Positions 37,077-49,618 of a stretch of 64,000 bases of DNA are shown here, in pieces. Within the stretch, counting starts at the first letter, position 1. Every line of letters begins with the position of its first letter. Made by a program: the position numbers and the translations under genes. The DNA is from Lentilitoribacter sp. GTDB lineage: Bacteria; Pseudomonadota; Alphaproteobacteria; Rhizobiales; Rhizobiaceae. The notes beneath the pieces were generated by a model that worked only from the letters and a program-made list of their open reading frames with translations, searched no databases and was not told the origin of the DNA. The stretch covers positions 621,385-685,384 of the forward strand of contig JBDWQJ010000004.1 in the NCBI GenBank assembly GCA_039986595.1, written 5' to 3'.

Positions 37077-38009
37077 ATGAGTGATAAAAGCCTGTCGAAT
37101 ATTAAGATCCCAGAAGCTGTGCGCCCCGTTCGGCCGCGACGGTCGGTGCTTTATGTGCCAGCTAATAACGAACGGGCGTTGGAGAAGTCACTTTCTTTGT
37201 CGTCCGATGTCATCATTTATGATCTAGAAGACGCGATCTTACCTGCTCAGAAAGCCACCGCACGGGAAACTTTACGCGCATTTTTAAACGATAAGTTCCC
37301 AAATGGTGTCAAAGACAGCAAAAAAGAGATCTTGATCCGAATAAATTCACTTTCCAGTGCATGGGGAAGCGAAGATTTGATAGCCGCGCGTGCGATCATG
37401 CCGTCTGCTATCTTATTGCCGAAGGTTTCTGAAGCCGATGACATTATCGAGGTCAATGATGCGTTGATTGAAATGGATACTTCGCCAGATTTGCGTTTAT
37501 GGGCAATGATTGAAACTCCACGAGGTATTTTAAATGTCGCTTCGATCGCAAGATATGCCCGAACGCCTGGTACAAGACTAGATTGTTTTATTGCCGGAAC
37601 GAATGATCTGGTCAAAGAAACGGGTGTTAAACCACAGGAAGGTCGCCCTTACCTATCCAATTGGCTCAGCCAAATTGTGTTGTCTGCTCGCGCTTATGGC
37701 CTTGATGTGATTGATGGCGTTTATAATGATTTTAAAGATGCATCCGGTTTTGAGCGGGAAAGCTTAGATGGCCGCTCGATGGGATTTGATGGCAAATCTC
37801 TCATTCATCCAAGCCAGATCAATTTTGCTAATGAAGCGTTTGGAATTGAAGAAGATGCATTAAACGAAGCTCAAGACATTATCGATGCATTCTCCGAAGC
37901 AAAGAATATTGATGCGGGTGTTATTCAACTCAACGGTAAAATGGTTGAGCGCCTTCATTTGGAAATGGCTGAAAAGCTTGTTGCAAAATCAAAATTGATA
38001 TCAAATTAA
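37077..38009 (+). CDS. HpcH/CitE family acyl-CoA lyase
   Basis: RRSVLYVP, DLEDA, IETPRG, GTNDL, GFDGKSLIHP motifs. Confidence 0.9.
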   Translation: MSDKSLSNIKIPEAVRPVRPRRSVLYVPANNERALEKSLSLSSDVIIYDLEDAILPAQKATARETLRAFLNDKFPNGVKDSKKEILIRINSLSSAWGSEDLIAARAIMPSAILLPKVSEADDIIEVNDALIEMDTSPDLRLWAMIETPRGILNVASIARYARTPGTRLDCFIAGTNDLVKETGVKPQEGRPYLSNWLSQIVLSARAYGLDVIDGVYNDFKDASGFERESLDGRSMGFDGKSLIHPSQINFANEAFGIEEDALNEAQDIIDAFSEAKNIDAGVIQLNGKMVERLHLEMAEKLVAKSKLISN

Positions 38010-39621: not shown

Positions 39622-40134
39622 TTAAGCTTTATTGATCGTGGTTTTCCCTAGGGTGTAAATTCCATAGGCGGCTATGAGAAAAGCCAACCCCGAAAAGACA
39701 GTGCGTGTCTGGTTCCAAAATTGCCATTCTTTTGAATAATTTTGCCAAATTGATTGCGCCTCTTCTGGCGATAATGGCAATTGAACCAGCGCGAGCTGCT
39801 CGTTCATCGGTACATTGATCATAAATGTTAAAATTGCACCGCCGAATAGATATACCAAGCCTGAGCATGCAAATATCGCCGCTAGTTTTTTAAGCTTCAT
39901 GGAGGCTGCAATACCAGCTGTTAAAAGTAGCGCTGGCGCGGTGCCAAAAAAGATAAACCCGAATATAATATTTCTCACCGATGCGTTCATGCCTTGCATG
40001 GCTTGAATGGCAACTTCGCTGGCAATTTGATCAAGCCCCCACATTGTTGAGCTAACCCAGGCATAGAAAAATCCAAATATGGCTGCGGCTAATAGCGTGG
40101 ATATGAAAGCCGATGTTCTGAGCAGTATAGTCAT
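39622..40134 (-). CDS. DUF1772 (anthrone oxygenase-like) membrane protein
   Basis: GFFYAW, QAMQGMN, NVPMNEQL, WQFWNQTRT motifs; four hydrophobic segments. Confidence 0.85.
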   Translation of the reverse strand: MTILLRTSAFISTLLAAAIFGFFYAWVSSTMWGLDQIASEVAIQAMQGMNASVRNIIFGFIFFGTAPALLLTAGIAASMKLKKLAAIFACSGLVYLFGGAILTFMINVPMNEQLALVQLPLSPEEAQSIWQNYSKEWQFWNQTRTVFSGLAFLIAAYGIYTLGKTTINKA

Positions 40135-40149
40135 GGTAATCTCCAAAAG

Positions 40150-40193
40150 CGTAATTTAGTGTACGTATTTACATATCCGTAATTTAATGTACG
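40150..40193. promoter_or_regulatory. Two candidate TetR operators
   Basis: CGTAATTTAGTGTACG (40150-65) and CGTAATTTAATGTACG (40178-93), each CGTA-N8-TACG. Confidence 0.65.
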
Positions 40194-40215
40194 ATATCTG
40201 TCAAGTGAGGTGATT

Positions 40216-40809
40216 ATGCGTGAAAGTGCACAAAGAGAGCGGCGGCGGTTAATTGAAGAGGCCGCCTATGAGCTGATTGATGAAAAGGGCTATGATAATA
40301 TTTCAATGCTCGCGATTGCCAAGCGTGCGAAGGCCTCCAATGAAACGCTTTATCGATGGTATGGCGATAAAAAGGGTTTGTTTCAGGCGATGGTGATCCG
40401 CAATGCGGATGATGTTTATGAAAGCCTTGTTGAAGATCTTGATCGTCAACGTGATCCCATGCAGATCTTAGAAGATGTTAGTTTGAAGCTATTGCGGCTT
40501 TTATCGAGCGACCGTGCGATTGCTTTAAACCGTGCTGCAGCTGCTGATCCGAGCGGTGAACTTGGCAAAGCGTTGTCTCAAGTCGGTCGTGAACGTGTAT
40601 TCCCTTCAATCACAAAAGTCCTTACTCAGATCAAAGAACAAGGGACATTTAGTGATTTGGAGATAGATGAATTAGGCAATCTCTATTTAAGTTTACTCAT
40701 TGGCGATCTACAAATTCGACGCGCGATTGGTGTGATGCCTGTTCCCAGTGAAGCAGAATTGAAAACTAAAACGCGTAAGGCGTTGGATCATTTATTGAAG
40801 TTTGCGTAA
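40216..40809 (+). CDS. TetR/AcrR family regulator
   Basis: N-terminal HTH AIAKRAKASNETLYRWYGDK. Confidence 0.92.
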   Translation: MRESAQRERRRLIEEAAYELIDEKGYDNISMLAIAKRAKASNETLYRWYGDKKGLFQAMVIRNADDVYESLVEDLDRQRDPMQILEDVSLKLLRLLSSDRAIALNRAAAADPSGELGKALSQVGRERVFPSITKVLTQIKEQGTFSDLEIDELGNLYLSLLIGDLQIRRAIGVMPVPSEAELKTKTRKALDHLLKFA

Positions 40810-40820
40810 TTTTTGCGGGT

Positions 40821-41945
40821 TTAACGCCATGCTCTTGGCCGAATGAGTTTTCCACTTTCGCGCTGTTCTTCGGTATGGGCAATCCAGCCAATCACGCGCC
40901 CAAAACCAAATAGTGTTTGGCCAGTTTTTGGTCGTAACCCAAGGCTTTTTTCCATTGCTGCTAGAGCAAAATCAATGTTGGGATATAGGTTATATTCCTT
41001 TTCAACTTGTTTTATGATTTCACTCCAACCATTGGGCATATCAAAATGTTTGAGCAACTCTTTAGCGCGGGGATCCATCTTGGGGTAAATCGGATGACCA
41101 AAACCGGGTGGATGTTTAATTCCCTTGATAAATTCGATCCGATCATCGTCTTTTTTCATCGCCGCGCGCCCGACCCACCAGCGTGTCATGGAAGTCATCG
41201 AGCCATGCCGGGTTCCAGAAAAACTGGCAAGTGCCGCTAAAATACAGGCTTCGGTACTAGCATGCGCGGATGCTGCAACACGCGCTGTGTATGCTGATGG
41301 ATTAAGTTCATGATCAGCGCATAAAACCAGACAACGGCGCGCAATATCTGCAAAATTATCATCCTCAGAGAAATAGTTTGCGAGTTGGTTATGAAATGGT
41401 TCGTCCGGTAGCGTTTCGATTTGGCAAATAGCTGCGAGCAGTGATTTGAGGATAAAACCGTTGCGCTCTGCTTCTTCTAGCGGATAATTCGTCGTTAAAA
41501 TATGTGTGGCTGCCGCTAACATGCGCACAAAGGCGTTTTTGCCTTCTATAGGCACAAACTTGAATTCAGGGTCAAAATTGAGATCTGTGTTAATCAACAA
41601 TTTGGCAACATTTTCATATGTCGCCTCTTTGGACATCTCAATTGCATCATAGCCTCTGTAATATAGTTTGCCTTCATCGATATGGCTGATTTCTGATTTT
41701 AAAACCGGCTCGCCCCAGCTTTGGGTGGATTTTGCAATGGCCCTGCGTGAACGTCCACGTTTTTTGCTGGCAAGTAGCGTTTCAACATCATGTGCATGAT
41801 AAAGACTTTTGCGTGCATCACCTTGTTGTGCATGGGCTCGCACCTTGCCGCGGCTGACATAAGCATAAAGCGTTTGGCGTGAAATATTGAGTGTTTCACA
41901 CACGTCATTTGCTGTTAGCGTAAAGACATCTTGATCTTTTTTCAT
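40821..41945 (-). CDS. HTH-citrate synthase family fusion protein
   Basis: N-terminal HTH (LNISRQTLYAYVSRG) followed by CS motifs ADHELNPS, GTRHG, PGFGHPIY, PNIDF, GWIAH; start ATG 41945. Confidence 0.88.
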   Translation of the reverse strand: MKKDQDVFTLTANDVCETLNISRQTLYAYVSRGKVRAHAQQGDARKSLYHAHDVETLLASKKRGRSRRAIAKSTQSWGEPVLKSEISHIDEGKLYYRGYDAIEMSKEATYENVAKLLINTDLNFDPEFKFVPIEGKNAFVRMLAAATHILTTNYPLEEAERNGFILKSLLAAICQIETLPDEPFHNQLANYFSEDDNFADIARRCLVLCADHELNPSAYTARVAASAHASTEACILAALASFSGTRHGSMTSMTRWWVGRAAMKKDDDRIEFIKGIKHPPGFGHPIYPKMDPRAKELLKHFDMPNGWSEIIKQVEKEYNLYPNIDFALAAMEKSLGLRPKTGQTLFGFGRVIGWIAHTEEQRESGKLIRPRAWR

Positions 41946-41949
41946 GTTG

Positions 41950-41981
41950 ATTATGTTGATCAATCTTGACGATCTGTCAAG
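41950..41981 (-). promoter_or_regulatory. Divergent promoter/operator with palindrome CTTGAC-N5-GTCAAG
   Basis: Minus strand TTGACA (41980-75), 19-nt spacer, CATAAT (41955-50); palindrome 41965-41981. Confidence 0.5.
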
Positions 41982-42028
41982 TTATCGAAATCCTTTCTTC
42001 AACAGTTCAGATTATGAAAGGTGTTCCA

Positions 42029-43384
42029 ATGGCGCTGCTTAAACCTATTTTAAACGCTCTCAACATGGATGATGATAGATGTCAGGCATCAATGATTCAC
42101 GTGAAAAACGATCATGTTGCATCGTCGGATGTGTTTGCGGTGACAGATCTTGCATCGAGTTCAATCGCGGCGGCTGGGTTGGCGCTGGTAAAATATGCCT
42201 TTGGTCCACAATATGAGGGTCAAGTTAGTGTTGATCAGCGTTTAGCTTATCTTTGGTTTGGTAGCTCCTTACGGCCACAAGGTTGGAAATTACTTTCTCC
42301 GTGGGATGATTTGGCTGGCGATTATCAAGCGCAAGATGGTTTTATTCGTCTACACACAAATGCGCCGCATCACCGCAATGTCGTTACCAAAATTTTGGGC
42401 AATTTAGATCGTGATCAGGTGGCAAAAAAGGTAGCGCTTTATCAAGCGGATGAACTCGAAGAGATGATTATTGAAAGTGGCGGTGCAGCGGCAAAAATGA
42501 TAAATAGTCAAAATTGGGCAACGCACCCTCAAGGGCACGCTTTATCAGATGAGCCGTTAATTGCCTGGCAGCATTTCAACGATGCGGAGCTTATACATGT
42601 CCCGCGCGGATCGCGACCTTTGGATGGTCTTAAAGTCCTTGATTTAACCCGTATTATTGCTGGACCTGTTGCAACGCGGTTTTTAGCTCATTATGGCGCA
42701 AATGTTCTGCGCATTGATCCTAAAGGTTGGGATGAAGGTGAGCATATTTTGGATATGACGCCGGGTAAATCCTGCGCAACACTTGATTTAAAAGACGCGG
42801 AAGATCTGGCGCGCCTAAAGACGCTCATTTCGCAGGCGGATGTTTTCATCCATGGTTATCGCGCCAATGCGCTTGAAAGTCTTGGGCTGGATGCTGCTGT
42901 TTTAAGAGAACTCAACCCTTCTTTGATTGATATTGCACATAATGCCTATGGCTGGTCGGGTCCTTGGCGCAATAGGCGTGGATTTGATAGTTTGGTGCAG
43001 ATGAGCTGCGGTATTGCTGCAAAAGGCATGGATGTTTCTCAAAGCCATAAACCGTACCCTATGAGTGTCCAGGCGCTTGATCATGCAACAGGCTATCTCA
43101 TTGCAGCGAGCGCGTTAATTGGCTTATCGCGATTGCGCGATCACGGCAAAGCGTGTTCTGCGCGTTTATCCCTAGCGCGCACGGCTGAGCTTTTGAAAAC
43201 CACAGAGTATGATCAGTTTGGTGTCAATTCCATGTCTGAGATGACTGATGATGTTTGCGCGCTGATTGAGAAAACTGCTCTGGGGCCCCTTAAGCGTCTA
43301 AAATCGCCGCTTATGATTGATGGTTTGAAACCTTCTTGGGCAAAACCTGCAAGCCTCTTGCATCAATCCCGTCCTGAGTTTTAG
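42029..43384 (+). CDS. Family III (CaiB/BaiF) CoA-transferase
   Basis: VLDLTRIIAGP, ADVFIHGYR, RRGFDSLVQ, ALDHATG (putative catalytic Asp); ATG 42029 follows AAAGGTG. Confidence 0.88.
   Translation: MALLKPILNALNMDDDRCQASMIHVKNDHVASSDVFAVTDLASSSIAAAGLALVKYAFGPQYEGQVSVDQRLAYLWFGSSLRPQGWKLLSPWDDLAGDYQAQDGFIRLHTNAPHHRNVVTKILGNLDRDQVAKKVALYQADELEEMIIESGGAAAKMINSQNWATHPQGHALSDEPLIAWQHFNDAELIHVPRGSRPLDGLKVLDLTRIIAGPVATRFLAHYGANVLRIDPKGWDEGEHILDMTPGKSCATLDLKDAEDLARLKTLISQADVFIHGYRANALESLGLDAAVLRELNPSLIDIAHNAYGWSGPWRNRRGFDSLVQMSCGIAAKGMDVSQSHKPYPMSVQALDHATGYLIAASALIGLSRLRDHGKACSARLSLARTAELLKTTEYDQFGVNSMSEMTDDVCALIEKTALGPLKRLKSPLMIDGLKPSWAKPASLLHQSRPEF
42093..42108. other. Possible distal parS-like site inside the CoA-transferase gene
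   Basis: TGATTCACGTGAAAAA, 2 mismatches; contains GATTC. Confidence 0.4.
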
Positions 43385-43421: not shown

Positions 43422-43658
43422 ATGGGTTTACAATTAAGTGATGAGCGGAAGTTAGATGTTGCCCGTGCATTAAGAGGTTTTTTCCTCGATGAATTTGATA
43501 ATGAGTTGAGCGAGTTTCAAGCAGCCGAAGTTATTGATTTTATGCTTAAACAAATCGGCCCCAGTCAATATAATCAAGCTATTGGGGATGCACGAAATTT
43601 CCTAATGGAGAAAATTGAAGAGCTTGATGTCACGCTTTATGAGCCTGAGATACGCTAG
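43422..43658 (+). CDS. DUF2164 small protein
   Basis: FFLDEFDNELSEFQAAEVIDF...GPSQYNQAIGDA motif. Confidence 0.8.
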   Translation: MGLQLSDERKLDVARALRGFFLDEFDNELSEFQAAEVIDFMLKQIGPSQYNQAIGDARNFLMEKIEELDVTLYEPEIR

Positions 43659-43771: not shown

Positions 43772-44782
43772 ATGCGGGAGCATCAAACGCATGAAGACTT
43801 GGCGCGTGAAGACTTGGCGCGCGAGGATTTAAATTGTCTTCGGCATAAGATAGCAAAAATTGAAAAACGGTCGACGGCTCGTTTTGATGACACGTCTTTT
43901 GTAAAGTCAGCTGTAAAGCGTGAGAGCAAGGAGAAAAGCCTTGTTCCGCTTTCTGCACAATATGGAAATAGGAATAAAAATGATGTTCTTGGATTTGATG
44001 ATCCCGTTTTAGAAAAAGCGCTTTCTGGTGGGATAAACCTTGCTGCTCTCACAGAATTTAGATCACAAGAAACTCGGCAAACAGGTGCTGCAAGCGCGTT
44101 TACTTGGGTTTTAGCGCAGCAAATGCAAAGCTTTTTAAAACAAAAGCATAACGAAGATTTACCGATTCTTTTTATCAGTGAAACATCATCACGTCTTGAA
44201 GGTGGGCATATATATCCGCCTGGATTAGTCTCATTAGGTATTAATCCTGCAACATGCCTTTTTATACAGCCTCGTTCCCTACATGACGCGCTTTGGGTGG
44301 CAGAACTTGCAGCCAAACAAAAATCAGTTGCAGCAACGATTTTAGAAGTGCGTGGAAATCCGCAAAACCTTGATATGGCCGGAACGCGGCGTTTGCATTT
44401 AAGAGCGCAAAGTTCGGGACGACCGTTTTTTTTATTGCGGCAAGCAGGGCAAGAAGAAGCAACAGCTGCGCGTCTTCGTTTTGGTGTGCAATCAGCGCCA
44501 GCGGCATTACGAACACTGCCATCGCAAAAGATGTTTTCCAGCAGTCTTTCACGTCCTGCTTTTCAGATCACGCTAGAGAAAAGCAAAAACCCAGCGCCGC
44601 AATCGTTTATTTTGGAATGGAATAATGACAGCCACTCTTTTACCACAAGATATCAAGACATCTCTTCCAACCCAGTCGATTTTTCTCAAGAGCAATCGCC
44701 GGATATTGGCGGTAGCGTTTCCCTATCTGGCAACGGACCGGATCAAGCGTCTGAGATGGGGCGTATCCTGGCGTTTGGATAA
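43772..44782 (+). CDS. imuA: ImuA (RecA-like mutasome accessory protein)
   Basis: DALWVAE, LDMAGTRRLHLRA, ATAARLRF, LEKSK...FILEW motifs; first gene of the cassette. Confidence 0.85.
   Translation: MREHQTHEDLAREDLAREDLNCLRHKIAKIEKRSTARFDDTSFVKSAVKRESKEKSLVPLSAQYGNRNKNDVLGFDDPVLEKALSGGINLAALTEFRSQETRQTGAASAFTWVLAQQMQSFLKQKHNEDLPILFISETSSRLEGGHIYPPGLVSLGINPATCLFIQPRSLHDALWVAELAAKQKSVAATILEVRGNPQNLDMAGTRRLHLRAQSSGRPFFLLRQAGQEEATAARLRFGVQSAPAALRTLPSQKMFSSSLSRPAFQITLEKSKNPAPQSFILEWNNDSHSFTTRYQDISSNPVDFSQEQSPDIGGSVSLSGNGPDQASEMGRILAFG
43793..43831 (+). repeat. In-frame 15-bp tandem duplication in imuA
   Basis: GAAGACTTGGCGCGT GAAGACTTGGCGCGC GAGGATTTA, encoding EDLAR-EDLAR-EDL. Confidence 0.85.
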
Positions 44783-46298
44783 AACCCAAAGCGCGTTACA
44801 AAACCTTCCGCCTATGGTCTGTGTGGCTAAACAAAAGGGTGCTATGCGATTAGCCTCGCTTGATATTAGTGCTCAATCTCACAGATTGCGCGAGGGGCAA
44901 GGGGTTACCGAAGCGCGCGCGATATGTCCTGATCTTGATATTATCCCCAGTGATGATGCGGCTGATTTGGCATTTTTGAATGCGCTTGCTGATTGGGCGG
45001 ATCGTTATACGCCGTTGATTGGCATTGATGCACCTTTTGGCAAGCCGCAAGGGCTGTTTTTGGATATTACAGGTTGCGCGCATTTGTTTGGCGGTGAAGC
45101 TGAGATGCTTAAAGATATCATCTCTCGCTTTGACAAAATGGGTATTTATGCAACAGGTTCGATTGCTCCTACACCCGGTTTGGCTTGGGGGTTAGCTCGG
45201 CAACATGAACCTTGTGATTATGTTAGCGAAAATGTGATTATGAATTGGGACAATTTGGATGCGCGATTTCGCCAGTTTCCAATGGCCGCTTTGCGTTTAC
45301 CGCTTGATATGTTGTTAGCGCTTGATCGTGTGGGGCTCAAAAAAGTCAAAGACATAATGTCCGCTCCTCGAAAACCATTAATGCGGCGGTTTGGTCCTTT
45401 GCTTTTAAAGCGACTTGATCAGGCTTTGGGTCGGGAAGAAGAACCTGTTTCCCCGCGTTTGCCTGTCTCTGATTTATCCGTTGAGCGCCGTCTAGCTGAA
45501 CCAATTGGACGACAAGAAGATATCGAGACTTGTATTGAGCAACTATCAAATTCGTTGCGCTGTGATTTGGAAAAGCGCGGTCAGGCGGGGCAAGAGTTTA
45601 TGCTGTTGTTATTTCGTATGGATGGTGTTGTGCGCCAAATTATGATTGGCCTATCTGCGCCCTCTCGAGATGCAAAGCGTATTAAGGCGCTTTTTTCGCA
45701 AAAGCTGGCGGCAATTTATGATGAGTCTGACGCCGGGACAGGATTTGAAACAATCAGGCTTTGTGTCGTCCAGGCTGTTGTGAAGTCTGATGTTCAAGAA
45801 TCATTTGTAAACGGCAGTAATGTTCAGACCAATATGCATCAATTGGCCGATCAGATAACGGCGCGTTTGGGGAAAGATAGCGTTGTAAAGCCTGCTTTTC
45901 ATCAGAGTTTTATCCCAGAGCTGGCAGCATCTTTTGTGCCGGTTATTGAACATAAACAGTATGATGAAACAATTTTGCAAAACGATTATTATGAGCGCCC
46001 GATTAGATTGTTTTCAAACCCTGAACCTGTGACCGCAATTGCGGAAGTACCGGAAGGTCCGCCTATTCGATTTAAATGGCGGCGTAGTCAATATCAGGTT
46101 GCCCGCGCGGAAGGCCCAGAACGGATTGCGGCTGAATGGTGGATTGATGGTGAGAGTGCCCAAACGCGCGATTATTATCGCGTTGAAGATAAATCAGGGC
46201 GCAGATTTTGGATTTTCCGTCAGGGTCTTTATGAGCGTGAAACGCATTTATCTGATGGTTTATTACCGAAGTGGTTTATGCATGGATTATTTGCGTGA
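44625..46298 (+). CDS. imuB: ImuB (inactive Y-family polymerase)
   Basis: [25 protein letters not shown]-terminal [10 protein letters not shown]...RDYYRVED motifs. Confidence 0.92.
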
Positions 46299-49200
46299 AT
46301 ACGGCCACCTCACCATATGCCGAACTTGGTGTTGCGAGCAATTTTTCCTTTTTAAAGGGCGCTTCGCATCCTGAAGAATTGATCGTTCGTGCGGGCAAAA
46401 TTGGGCTAACGCATATTGGTCTTGCAGATCAAAATACAGTTGCCGGTGTCGTGCGTGCACATATGGCGGCAAAAGAAGCTGATATCATTTATCATCCTGG
46501 GTGCCGTCTTGTTTTTACCGATGGTACATCTGATATCTTGGCCTATCCAAAAAATCGTAAAGGTTGGGGGCATTTATGCCGTCTTTTGACAATTGGTAAT
46601 TTGCGATCTGAAAAAGGCAATTGTCAGCTATCACGTAATGATTTGGTCAGTTGGTCACCTGATCTATTATTTTGTGTGTTAGCAAAAACAGATGCGCATA
46701 ATGATCCGGATAAATTGAGCGAAGAACTTGAGTTCTTAAAAGCGCATATAAATGACAGATTATACCTAGCTCTGACCCCGCATTACGACGGGCATGATAA
46801 ATATCGTTTTGCCTGTTTATCAGAGCTGTCTGAAGAGACATCTATCCCATTAATGGCAAGCAATGATGTCTTTATGCACGAGCATGGTCGTCGTCCCTTG
46901 CGTGATGTGTTGTCGTCAATTGAACATCATAAGCCTGTTTATGATATGGGTTTTCTATTGTTTAAAAATGCAGAGCGTTATCTAAAATCAAGTGCAGATA
47001 TGAACCATGTTTTAAAGGCATATCCCCAAGCCATTACAAACTCTATAAAGTTTGCGGATCAATTAAGTTTTTCGTTGGATGAATTGAAGTATCAATATCC
47101 GGATGAAAAATTTGGAACCGGCACACCTCAGGAAACTTTAACTGAACTTGCTTATCAAGGCGCTAAGGATCGTTATCCAGATGGTGTTCCTAAAACGATA
47201 ATTGATCAAATTGAACATGAATTGGCATTAATAAAGCAGTTAGACTATGCGCCCTATTTTCTAACAGTATGGGATATTGTGCGTTATGCCCGCAGCCAAA
47301 ATATATTATGCCAGGGCCGTGGGTCTGCGGCCAATTCCACCGTTTGTTATTGCTTACAAATTACTGATGTAAACCCCAACAAAGTAGACCTTTTATTTGA
47401 GCGTTTTATTTCCCCAGAACGCAATGAACCACCTGATATTGATGTAGATTTTGAGCATGAACGGCGTGAAGAAGTTATCCAATATATTTACCGTAAATAT
47501 GGTCATGATCATGCAGGCCTTGCCGCAACGGTTGTCACTTATAGAGCGCGCATGGCAGCGCGCGAAGCGGGCAAAGCTTTTGGTTTGTCTGATGATGCTA
47601 TTTCTGGATTATCCGGTCTTGTTTGGGGGTGGTCATCAAAAAGCATCACAGAGCGTGAAGCCAAGGAAGCAGGTCTTGATATTAAGGATATCACAACGCG
47701 GCGGGTTCTTGATTATGCCTCGCAGTTGATCGGGTTTCCCCGTCATTTATCTCAGCATGTTGGTGGATTTGTCATCACCAGAGATCGGCTTGATGAAGTG
47801 GTGCCGTTGATGAATACGGCGATGGAAGGTCGCACTATGGTTGAGTGGGATAAGGATGATTTGGAAGCTTTGGGAATATTGAAAATTGATATTCTGGCGC
47901 TTGGTATGTTGTCATGTCTGGCGAAAGCTTTTGATCTTTTGAAAACCAAATATGGTATTTATAAAACGCTTGCGGATCTACAAGATGAAGATCAGATCGT
48001 TTACGATATGATCTGCGCAGCGGATACAGTTGGTGTTTTTCAAATTGAAAGCCGTGCACAGATGACGATGTTACCAAGGTTAAAGCCGCGGGAATTTTAT
48101 GATCTGGTGATTGAAGTTGCCATCGTCAGACCAGGTCCTATTCAGGGGGATATGGTGCACCCATATTTGCGCAGGCGACAGGGACTGGAACCTGTATCAT
48201 TTCCCAAGAAAGAATTGGAACAGGTCTTAGGGCGCACTTTAGGTGTGCCGCTTTTTCAAGAGCAAGCAATGAAGATTGCGATCGTTGCAGCTGATTTTAC
48301 CCCCGGGGAAGCAGATAAATTACGGCGTGCTATGGCAACGTTCCGCCGGGTTGGAACCATCCATACATTTAAGATGAAGATGATTAAAGGCATGGTCAAA
48401 AATGGATATGAGGAGGCGTTTGCCGAGCGTTGTTTCAAGCAGATCGAAGGCTTTGGTGAATATGGTTTTCCTGAAAGTCACGCCGCATCTTTTGCGCTTT
48501 TGGTTTATGCTTCTTGTTGGTTTAAAGCTTATTATCCTGATATTTTTGGCGCGGCGATTTTAAACTCTCAACCGATGGGTTTTTATGCACCATCGCAGCT
48601 TATTCGCGATGCACGTGAGCATGGGGTGGATGTCCGGCCTATCGATATCAATTATTCGAATTGGAATTGTATTTTAGAAGACGGTTCATTTGAACCTTCG
48701 ACCATGTCAAAACCTCGACGTTCGATGGCCCAAACAATCCGAACGGAATATGCGCTGCGCCTTGGATTCAAACAAATTAAAGGTTTGCGCGAAGGTGACA
48801 TGGATAAAATATCTGAATGCCGGGATACGGATGATAATGGTCACTACGATTCTGTGCGTGATCTTTGGTTGCGTACTGGACTTTCGTGTAAAATTTTGGA
48901 ACGTTTAGCAGAGGCGGATGCATTTCGGTCTATCGGCCTTGATCGCCGTGAAGCTTTGTGGGCGGTTAAAGCGCTTGATCAAACAACGCTTGATGATGAA
49001 GGATTGCTGTTTAAGAAGGATCACTCACCCATTGAAAAAGAAGCAGAGCTTTCTCTGCCTAGAATGCGGTTAAGCGAACAGGTGATTAATGATTATCGCT
49101 ATTTAAAACTCTCGCTGAAAGCCCACCCACTTTCATTTATTCGTCATCGATTGGCGGTTAGAAATGCTGTATTGCATGAAGATTTGCCTCAGGTGAGAAG

Positions 49201-49618
49201 CGGGCGGAATATTTCAGTGTCTGGTCTCGTGCTTGTGCGTCAGCGACCGGGTTCAGCCAAGGGTGTTATATTTCTAACATTGGAGGATGAGACAGGCGTT
49301 GCCAATGTGATTGTTTGGCCGAAGGTTTTTGAACGTTTTCGCAAGCTTATATTAGGCGGCAGGCTTTTACGTGTTCATGGCAAACTACAAAATGAATCTG
49401 GTGTGATCCATGTCGTTGCGCACCGTATTGAAGATCTGACATTTGAAATGGAAAGCCTAGAAACCCAGCATGATGAAAAAGATGAAAAGGACCTTAGTTT
49501 TATCAAAGGACAGAAGGTCAATTTATTGGGCGATAAAAGCACAATGCTTGCACAATCAAACTCATTGCGTGGAAAACGAGCCGGTCAGGTTATGCCAAAG
49601 GGTCGAAATTTCCATTAA
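46295..49618 (+). CDS. dnaE2: Error-prone DNA polymerase DnaE2 (ImuC)
   Basis: [41 protein letters not shown]; GTG 46295 overlaps the imuB stop. Confidence 0.96.

Follow-up and report, generated by a model that had tools for sequence, protein, structure and literature searches.

Some transcription regulators are built around a whole enzyme fold, MocR/GabR, PutA and BirA being known examples. In MocR, GabR and PdxR, a helix-turn-helix (HTH) domain is fused to an entire aminotransferase-fold domain that works as the effector sensor, and the regulator is often encoded divergently from the gene it controls. Our literature searches found no report of a citrate-synthase (CS) fold as the sensor domain of a regulator. 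Here we analyse a gene encoding an HTH-CS fusion protein, together with the CoA-transferase gene divergent from it, at positions 40821-43384 of a 64,000-nucleotide stretch of DNA from Lentilitoribacter sp. (contig JBDWQJ010000004.1, positions 621,385 to 685,384), which we call the window. Our comparisons suggest that the fusion protein is probably a one-component regulator of its own gene and of the divergent one, acting through a conserved DNA site and using its CS domain as the sensor.

Besides the housekeeping CitA, Caulobacter crescentus carries two adjacent citrate-synthase paralogues, CitB and CitC (CCNA_03757/CCNA_03758; Bergé et al. 2020, eLife, PMC7083601). CitB, and not CitC, complemented E. 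coli gltA, so CitB is a functional citrate synthase, and CitC was treated as a putative one (PMC7083601); a text search of that paper for 'helix-turn-helix' and 'DNA-binding' returned no mention tied to CitC. A Caulobacter genome that we fetched encodes exactly one type-I CS and a divergent pair, formed by an HTH-less CS of the PRK12350 type and an HTH-CS fusion, with the conserved site described below between them. From this layout, CitC is very likely the HTH-bearing fusion. Note that the partner in Caulobacter is a citrate synthase, whereas in the window it is a CoA-transferase.

An HTH domain joined to a citrate-synthase fold

The divergent pair comprises the following features:

40821-41945, minus strand: HTH-citrate-synthase fusion gene, a putative one-component regulator (open reading frame (ORF) and translation; 374 amino acids (aa), N-terminus MKKDQD)
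41763-41918, minus strand: MerR-type winged HTH, aa 10-61 (Pfam HTH_17)
40833-41717, minus strand: complete citrate-synthase fold, aa 77-371 (Pfam Citrate_synt, structure match, invariant columns)
42029-43384, plus strand: domain-permuted family III CoA-transferase, 451 aa (Pfam CoA_transf_3; catalytic Asp D351 at 43079-43081)

A preliminary description of this locus had proposed a 374-aa protein with an N-terminal HTH and a CS domain carrying the catalytic-type motifs GTRHG, GFGHPIY and NIDF. Pfam agreed on both domains, matching HTH_17 at aa 10-61 (33.7 bits, against a cut-off of 27) and Citrate_synt (PF00285) at aa 77-371 (178 bits, profile positions 3-357). The three motifs are all in the sequence, and their residues H247 (GTRHG), H284 (GFGHPIY) and D325 (NIDF) align with the catalytic His, His and Asp of the solved citrate/2-methylcitrate synthases 6abx and 3o8j. 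Moreover, the CS domain of the window retains H212, N215, H247, H284, R293, D325, F346, R350 and R369. In 56 homologues taken from every partner class (see below), H212, H247, H284, R293, F346, R350 and R369 are invariant, and at least 90% of them keep N215 and D325. By alignment to the canonical enzymes, these conserved residues are the oxaloacetate/citrate-binding and catalytic positions.

An AlphaFold2 (AF2) model of the fusion protein, computed with an alignment of 56 homologues as input, had a mean predicted local distance difference test (pLDDT) score of 92. In this model aa 65-374 superpose on entire short citrate synthases (VIA Z 30.9, 304 aa and a root-mean-square deviation (rmsd) of 2.8 Å to 1a59), and the two-domain, all-helical CS fold is complete. 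Relative to the Pfam profile, the domain lacks about 60 residues. When 21 curated models of CS and citryl-CoA lyase (NCBIfam equivalogs, TIGR01800) were applied, the fusion protein stayed under the cut-off in all of them: its best curated enzyme score was 121 bits, to TIGR01800, whose cut-off is 421, and a weak match of the CS-like domain to the citryl-CoA lyase model NF004869 gave 60.6 bits. By these profiles, the protein is a member of the CS superfamily, yet of none of its curated enzyme families. The genome from which the window comes also encodes a type-I citrate synthase. The closest protein match, at 95% identity, puts this organism among the alphaproteobacteria, near Lentilitoribacter.

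At the N-terminus, the near-invariant HTH core T25-G33 (TLYAYVSRG) was invariant in 23 N-terminal segments, and seven of its nine residues (the exceptions are Y29 and G33) were invariant in the 56 full-length homologues. Several fusion homologues matched PF13411 (MerR_1), the HTH profile matched SoxR weakly (E 0.036), and in the AF2 model aa 12-50 form a helix-turn-helix with a beta-hairpin wing. The coiled-coil dimerisation helix of MerR is absent from this model, where the HTH is followed by short helices (aa 51-63 and 67-77), a low-confidence linker and the CS fold. Judged by profiles and model, the N-terminal domain is a MerR-type winged HTH, but the fusion protein departs from the MerR architecture.

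Compared with MocR/GabR/PdxR, the fusion follows the same logic: a DNA-binding domain is joined to an entire enzyme fold in which the cofactor or substrate chemistry is preserved. The analogy is one of design only: the HTH of those regulators is GntR-type whereas that of the fusion is MerR/HTH_17-type, and the enzyme folds are unrelated, without homology. With MerR, SoxR, CueR and BmrR the fusion shares the type of N-terminal winged HTH and a dyad site in or beside the candidate core promoter. In the MerR family, however, the effector domain is small; in the fusion it is replaced by a 300-aa CS fold, without the coiled-coil helix.

A widespread family with changing divergent partners

The preliminary description had held that this architecture recurs in bacteria. 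In a scan of one genome per species we found at least 594 fusion loci, distributed over Alpha-, Beta- and Gammaproteobacteria, Acidobacteriota, Latescibacterota, Binatota and Actinomycetota, and the gene is present in about 7% of the alphaproteobacterial genomes sampled. The same description called the architecture functionally uncharacterised, and in agreement with this our literature searches, covering the fusion itself and the Caulobacter locus tags, found no published characterisation.

The gene divergently upstream of the fusion gene was scored in 81 loci (80 fetched loci plus the window). A second citrate synthase, lacking the HTH, occupies this position in 50/81 loci, and a CoA-transferase of the window's type in 14/81; varied genes are found in 17/81 (major facilitator superfamily (MFS) transporters, beta-lactamase-like, cupin, methyltransferase, DUF2332 and GntR genes). 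With 440-477 bits, the partners without an HTH exceed the cut-off of 332 set for the NCBIfam model NF009005/PRK12350 'citrate synthase'. A divergent neighbour that varies in this way, being a CS paralogue, a permuted CoA-transferase or something else, is the pattern of a local regulator.

On a fusion-protein tree, the loci with a CoA-transferase partner are found in three separate, well-supported clades: the window with locus L001, an Achromobacter/Bordetella/Pandoraea/Methylobacterium/Terriglobales group, and Burkholderia/Paraburkholderia. Since the pairing recurs in three separate clades, it is more than chance. The co-occurrence analysis suggested in the preliminary description gave a divided answer, however: the pair does recur, but the CoA-transferase accounts for only 14 of the 81 partners, and the reverse association is weak, with the fusion gene adjoining 3/29 fetched CoA-transferases of the window's type. 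This type of CoA-transferase was found in 34/400 sampled Pseudomonadota genomes, the window's own genome excluded. In the window's clade, as seen in four relatives with fusion proteins 64-81% identical, the pair and its wider neighbourhood are syntenic.

A conserved 24-bp site between the divergent genes

The preliminary description placed the two genes head-to-head across 83 bp, and the relatives support this. Two ATGs are possible for the CoA-transferase; that at 42029 is conserved in the four relatives and is preceded, 7 nucleotides (nt) upstream, by a Shine-Dalgarno-like AAAGG, so the spacer comprises the 83 bp from 41946 to 42028. It contains the following elements:

41947-41970, minus strand: operator-like site GTCAA-GA-TTGAT-CAACATA-ATCAA, 24 bp (half-sites A 41966-41970, B 41959-41963, C 41947-41951)
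41975-41980, minus strand: TTGACA, invariant in the window's clade (candidate -35 of a leaderless fusion-gene promoter, or a fourth half-site, TTGAC-N5-GTCAA)
41966-41994, plus strand: candidate CoA-transferase promoter, TTGACG (half-site A, plus strand), 17 nt, AATCCT

The motif was first spotted in a spacer alignment of 13 CoA-transferase loci and then searched for in all 81 loci. The family consensus is RTCAA-N2-TTGAT-N7-ATCAA, and in the window the site ends 1 nt ahead of the fusion-gene ATG. Immediately before the fusion gene, a regular expression located the site in 68/81 loci and scoring in about 72-75/81, the scoring having recovered the N7 form in 64 loci and an N6 form in 8 more; in two apparent misses, the start codon had been placed upstream of the site. 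The site is present irrespective of the neighbour, in alpha-, beta- and gammaproteobacterial, Acidobacteriota, Latescibacterota and Actinomycetota loci, and it persists at L046, where the upstream gene is co-directional. Its weight matrix, R-T-C-A-A-T-(C/A)-T-T-G-A-T-y-n-A-n-n-t-a-A-T-C-A-A-Y-a-T, is close to 2 bits at most core positions. One pentamer occurs three times, which allows two readings of the site: a pair of overlapping dyads, ATCAA-N2-TTGAT and TTGAT-N7-ATCAA, or three direct repeats at roughly 10-bp spacing, the middle one degenerate. In the four relatives, the block CTTGACA-N4-GTCAAGATTGATCAACATAATCAA-y-ATG is invariant, whereas the CoA-transferase side of the spacer varies freely.

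The 3.7-Mb genome of the window holds a single exact copy. Allowing one mismatch, 11 further matches were found in this genome (2 for the reversed control), and we call no wider regulon; a two-mismatch search of the window gave no more matches than shuffled sequence. Among alphaproteobacterial genomes, the strict pattern is present in 41/251, compared to 2/251 for the reversed control, and almost always as a single copy. Moreover, the fusion gene was detected (E <= 1e-40) in 18 alphaproteobacterial genomes, and in 14 of them the pattern stands immediately before it. When a cis-element tracks a gene family from phylum to phylum and the HTH of that family has an invariant recognition region, the two behave as is expected of an operator and its regulator.

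Some motif-bearing genomes without a detected fusion gene look as if they carry divergent family members, and others a different recurrent sequence. One recurrent sequence, TCAAC-n-TTGATCCG-y-TGCATCAA, fits the strict motif in G459, G572 (C8), G435 and G515, where no fusion gene is near. It probably belongs to the conserved coding region of some unrelated gene and gives false positives in the pattern search.

Two loci from metagenome-assembled genomes, L053 and L078, encode nearly identical fusion proteins (branch lengths about 0.08) next to the same beta-lactamase-like gene, and both have the variant site GTCAATCTTAAATCAAC. One genome is labelled Alphaproteobacteria and the other Flavobacteriaceae, which points to a recent transfer or a binning error.

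Candidate promoters around the site

On the minus strand, the window's clade reads TTGACA-19 nt-CATAAT-4 nt-ATG, a spacer of MerR-like length in which the dyad GTCAA-N2-TTGAT is centred. TTGACA at 41975-41980 is a possible -35 of the fusion-gene promoter, to judge from this arrangement, although that -35 is not conserved family-wide. Note that a scan of the spacer for sigma-70 promoters reported none, since it admits only 16-18-nt spacers and strict hexamers. Across the family, about half of the loci have 10 nt or less between the end of the site and the predicted start codon, and twelve have at most 1 nt. As this leaves no room for a ribosome-binding site, many fusion genes are probably leaderless, with the site overlapping their core promoter.

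On the partner strand, half-site A gives TTGAC or TTGAT, a plausible -35, and a -10-like nAnnnT follows it after 16-18 nt in 12/14 CoA-transferase loci and in 49/74 loci overall; by a rough estimate, about 18% would be expected by chance. In 12/14 loci, 43-69 nt separate the site from the start codon of the CoA-transferase. This placement fits negative autoregulation, combined with one of two effects on the partner gene: its -35 would be occluded, or the gene would be activated from a position just upstream of that -35 (dyad centre near -46). Compared with MerR, the 19-nt spacer of the candidate promoter is seen only in the window's clade, and whereas the MerR operator is a dyad centred in the promoter spacer, TTGAT-N7-ATCAA of the fusion family covers the predicted -10/start region.

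The Burkholderia/Paraburkholderia loci L049, L054, L065, L066 and L070 have extra conserved blocks around the site. One, AGTCTAGA, lies about 20 nt upstream of it and reads TAGACT, a candidate CoA-transferase -10, on the partner strand. The other, CATATATTGATTTCT, lies downstream of the site in the 34-59-nt leader of the fusion gene and holds a further TTGAT.

Proposed mechanism and candidate ligands

We propose that a dimer, held together by the CS-like domain, would present two MerR-type winged HTHs that bind RTCAA-N2-TTGAT-N7-ATCAA at 41947-41970. The site would overlap both the start of the regulator's own, probably leaderless, gene and the -35 region of the divergent CoA-transferase promoter, so that its occupancy would control both genes. 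The CS domain, which keeps the whole oxaloacetate/citrate pocket and the catalytic triad, would act as the sensor: oxaloacetate plus an acyl-CoA, or citrate, might close the two CS sub-domains, this movement would be relayed to the HTHs, and turnover of the ligand may accompany the sensing. Real citrate synthases close their two domains on oxaloacetate, which makes a domain movement a plausible signal to the HTH.

Since the pocket residues are the same whatever the partner (CS, CoA-transferase or other), the effector should be family-wide. Given the conserved pocket and the small share of CoA-transferase partners, a general CS ligand (oxaloacetate, acetyl-/acyl-CoA, citrate or CoA) is a likelier effector than an acyl-CoA specific to the neighbour. 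The preliminary description had pictured a one-component regulator on the shared spacer that senses or turns over an acyl-CoA made by the neighbouring enzyme. Its regulatory half is favoured by the family-specific 24-bp site in the spacer and by the recurrent divergent arrangement, and its metabolic half is disfavoured by a pocket that does not depend on the partner. In sum, the comparative support for a regulator is strong, and none was gained for a link to the product of the CoA-transferase.

Several observations weigh against a regulator of this kind. The family has no MerR coiled-coil, and the A/B dyad, at 12 bp, is too short for a classical MerR operator. About 6-9 of the 81 loci have no clear site, some perhaps because of misplaced start codons, and the strict motif is also present in 27 genomes without a fusion gene at E 1e-40. 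Part of the site could be promoter sequence instead of operator, since the TTGAC of half-site A equals the -35 consensus and TATAAT is frequent in the N7. A full catalytic triad suits an enzyme as well as a sensor, and the membership of CitC in the family is read from genome layout.

What is new here, on the comparative evidence, is very probably a one-component regulator with a citrate-synthase enzyme-fold sensor, found in a widespread family with one conserved DNA site. A broader proposal, which we put forward tentatively as possible rather than probable, is that the family is a phylum-spanning sensor of entry into the tricarboxylic acid (TCA) cycle: the CS active site would read oxaloacetate/acyl-CoA, by domain closure or by turnover, and the MerR-type HTH at its fixed operator would switch a CitB-type CS or a permuted CoA-transferase. 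If so, genes annotated 'citrate synthase' in hundreds of species would be regulators. The fusion family is routinely annotated as citrate or 2-methylcitrate synthase, which can mislead metabolic reconstructions and paralogue counts, such as the three 'citrate synthases' of Caulobacter. Were oxaloacetate or acetyl-CoA the ligand, the fusion would offer a natural biosensor for metabolites whose sensing is otherwise difficult. The 24-bp candidate operator, the short list of candidate ligands and the Caulobacter citB/citC genetics make direct tests possible.

Alternative explanations

The alternative that survives best is the version given in the preliminary description, a true trigger enzyme: a competent citrate, methylcitrate or citryl-CoA synthase or lyase carrying a relevant flux, which is also a transcription regulator. 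Like the trigger enzymes PutA and BirA, the fusion appears from its sequence to carry the prerequisites for both roles. The catalytic His/His/Asp and the oxaloacetate-binding Arg are invariant or nearly so in the 56 homologues and the CS fold is complete; enzyme-derived sensors that do not catalyse often lose such residues. The complete triad therefore allows catalysis and keeps a trigger enzyme in play. We nevertheless consider it unlikely. All the curated CS equivalog scores are far under their cut-offs, the domain is some 60 residues short of the Pfam profile, and the genome already has a type-I citrate synthase. In addition, Caulobacter CitC, probably a member of the family, failed to complement E. 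coli gltA (PMC7083601).

Very unlikely, in our view, is a two-enzyme pathway in which the CoA-transferase would make a citryl-CoA-like thioester and the CS-like domain would cleave it, with the HTH autoregulatory only or vestigial. The weak NF004869 match and the recurrence of the pair in three clades speak for it. Against this, the genes are divergent and not co-transcribed, few fusion genes have a CoA-transferase partner and few permuted CoA-transferases adjoin a fusion gene (14/81 and 3/29, as above), the commonest partner is itself a citrate synthase, and few features of the family are as conserved as the HTH and the DNA site.

Finally, we give hardly any credence to the 24-bp element being just back-to-back promoters, with an HTH that has another DNA target or none: the TTGAC of half-site A with its -10-like hexamer 16-18 nt away on the partner strand, and the frequent TATAAT in N7, would suit promoters, but near-2-bit conservation at 14 or more positions across phyla whose promoter consensus sequences differ, the threefold occurrence of one pentamer both as dyad and as direct repeat, persistence at L046, and an element that tracks the gene family rather than taxonomy as a single copy per genome all argue otherwise.

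The domain-permuted CoA-transferase

Two parts can be distinguished in the CoA-transferase:

42029-42607, plus strand: N-terminal domain, aa 1-193, homologous to the family III small domain (profile matches of homologues)
42608-43381, plus strand: complete large Rossmann-like domain, aa 194-451, without the usual inserted small domain (structure superposition)

The neighbour had been described as a CoA-transferase that retains DHATG, and this is borne out. Pfam matched CoA_transf_3 (PF02515), at aa 198-391 and over profile positions 1-204 only. The Asp of DHATG, D351, aligns with D175 of M. tuberculosis Rv3272, which is present in the wild-type structure 5yit and replaced in 5yiy, whose chain bears the title D175A mutant. 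D351 is invariant in 11 CoA-transferase homologues. In the AF2 model of the CoA-transferase (pLDDT 87), aa 194-451 superpose on the large domain of 9zav (VIA Z 22.7, 250 aa, rmsd 2.4). The match spans residues 49-428 of that chain, that is, it skips the chain's small domain.

Pfam gave no match on the N-terminal part of the window's own CoA-transferase, and a profile of this domain gave nothing significant against the few canonical CoA-transferases in the fetched loci. The N-terminal parts of homologues, however, match PF02515 positions 160/228-319 (E 2.9e-5, 5e-4 and 0.012), and the region carries the small-domain motifs GDY..DGWIRLH and HPQG. The homology of the N-terminal domain rests on these Pfam matches of homologues and on the correspondence of motifs and secondary structure. 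On profiles and model, the neighbour is a domain-permuted family III CoA-transferase with its small domain N-terminal and its catalytic Asp intact.

With the canonical family III enzymes (Frc, YfdW, CaiB, Rv3272 and SUGCT), the window's CoA-transferase has in common the large-domain fold (Z about 22, 250 aa), the catalytic Asp and an RRGFDSLVQ-type motif. The order of the canonical enzymes is N half of the large domain, small domain, C half of the large domain, whereas in the window's enzyme the small domain comes first. Canonical family III CoA-transferases form interlocked dimers built on the normal domain order, and the permuted enzyme is of structural interest because of this. The genomic contexts of the permuted type are very diverse. 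A conserved operon around it was sought as a clue to the substrate and rejected, the neighbours being unrelated (histidine kinase, SDR, HlyD, ABC permease, MscS, GntR, EamA and IF-2B-like genes).

Neighbouring genes

Downstream of the CoA-transferase lies one further small gene:

43422-43658, plus strand: DUF2164 gene, 78 aa, possibly co-transcribed (ORF 37 nt past the CoA-transferase)

A DUF2164 gene follows the CoA-transferase in the four relatives and is absent from all other CoA-transferase loci. As a third component of the family module it was ruled out, since it is confined to the window's clade.

Directly downstream, 43772-49618 (plus strand) holds an imuA-like ORF (43772-44782), an imuB/Y-family polymerase-like ORF (44625-46298) and a 1115-aa ORF (46271-49618). 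This cassette looks like an imuA-imuB-dnaE2 module of SOS mutagenesis, with a candidate dnaE2 as its third ORF. The imuA/imuB part is syntenic in the relatives.

On the other side, a TetR-family regulator gene (40210-40809, plus strand) is convergent with the fusion gene and is adjoined by a gene for an anthrone-oxygenase/ChrI-like membrane protein (39622-40146, minus strand); the two (39622-40809) look like a separate small regulatory pair. A CitE/HpcH-family C-C lyase is encoded 3 kb from the fusion gene (37077-38009, plus strand), its closest models being citE and RipC, both below cut-off. In the relatives (L125-L128), a 68-aa DUF1737 gene stands beside this lyase, and the block is syntenic. 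The lyase block is separated from the divergent pair by AraC-GyrI, an unassigned ORF, and the anthrone-oxygenase-like and TetR genes.

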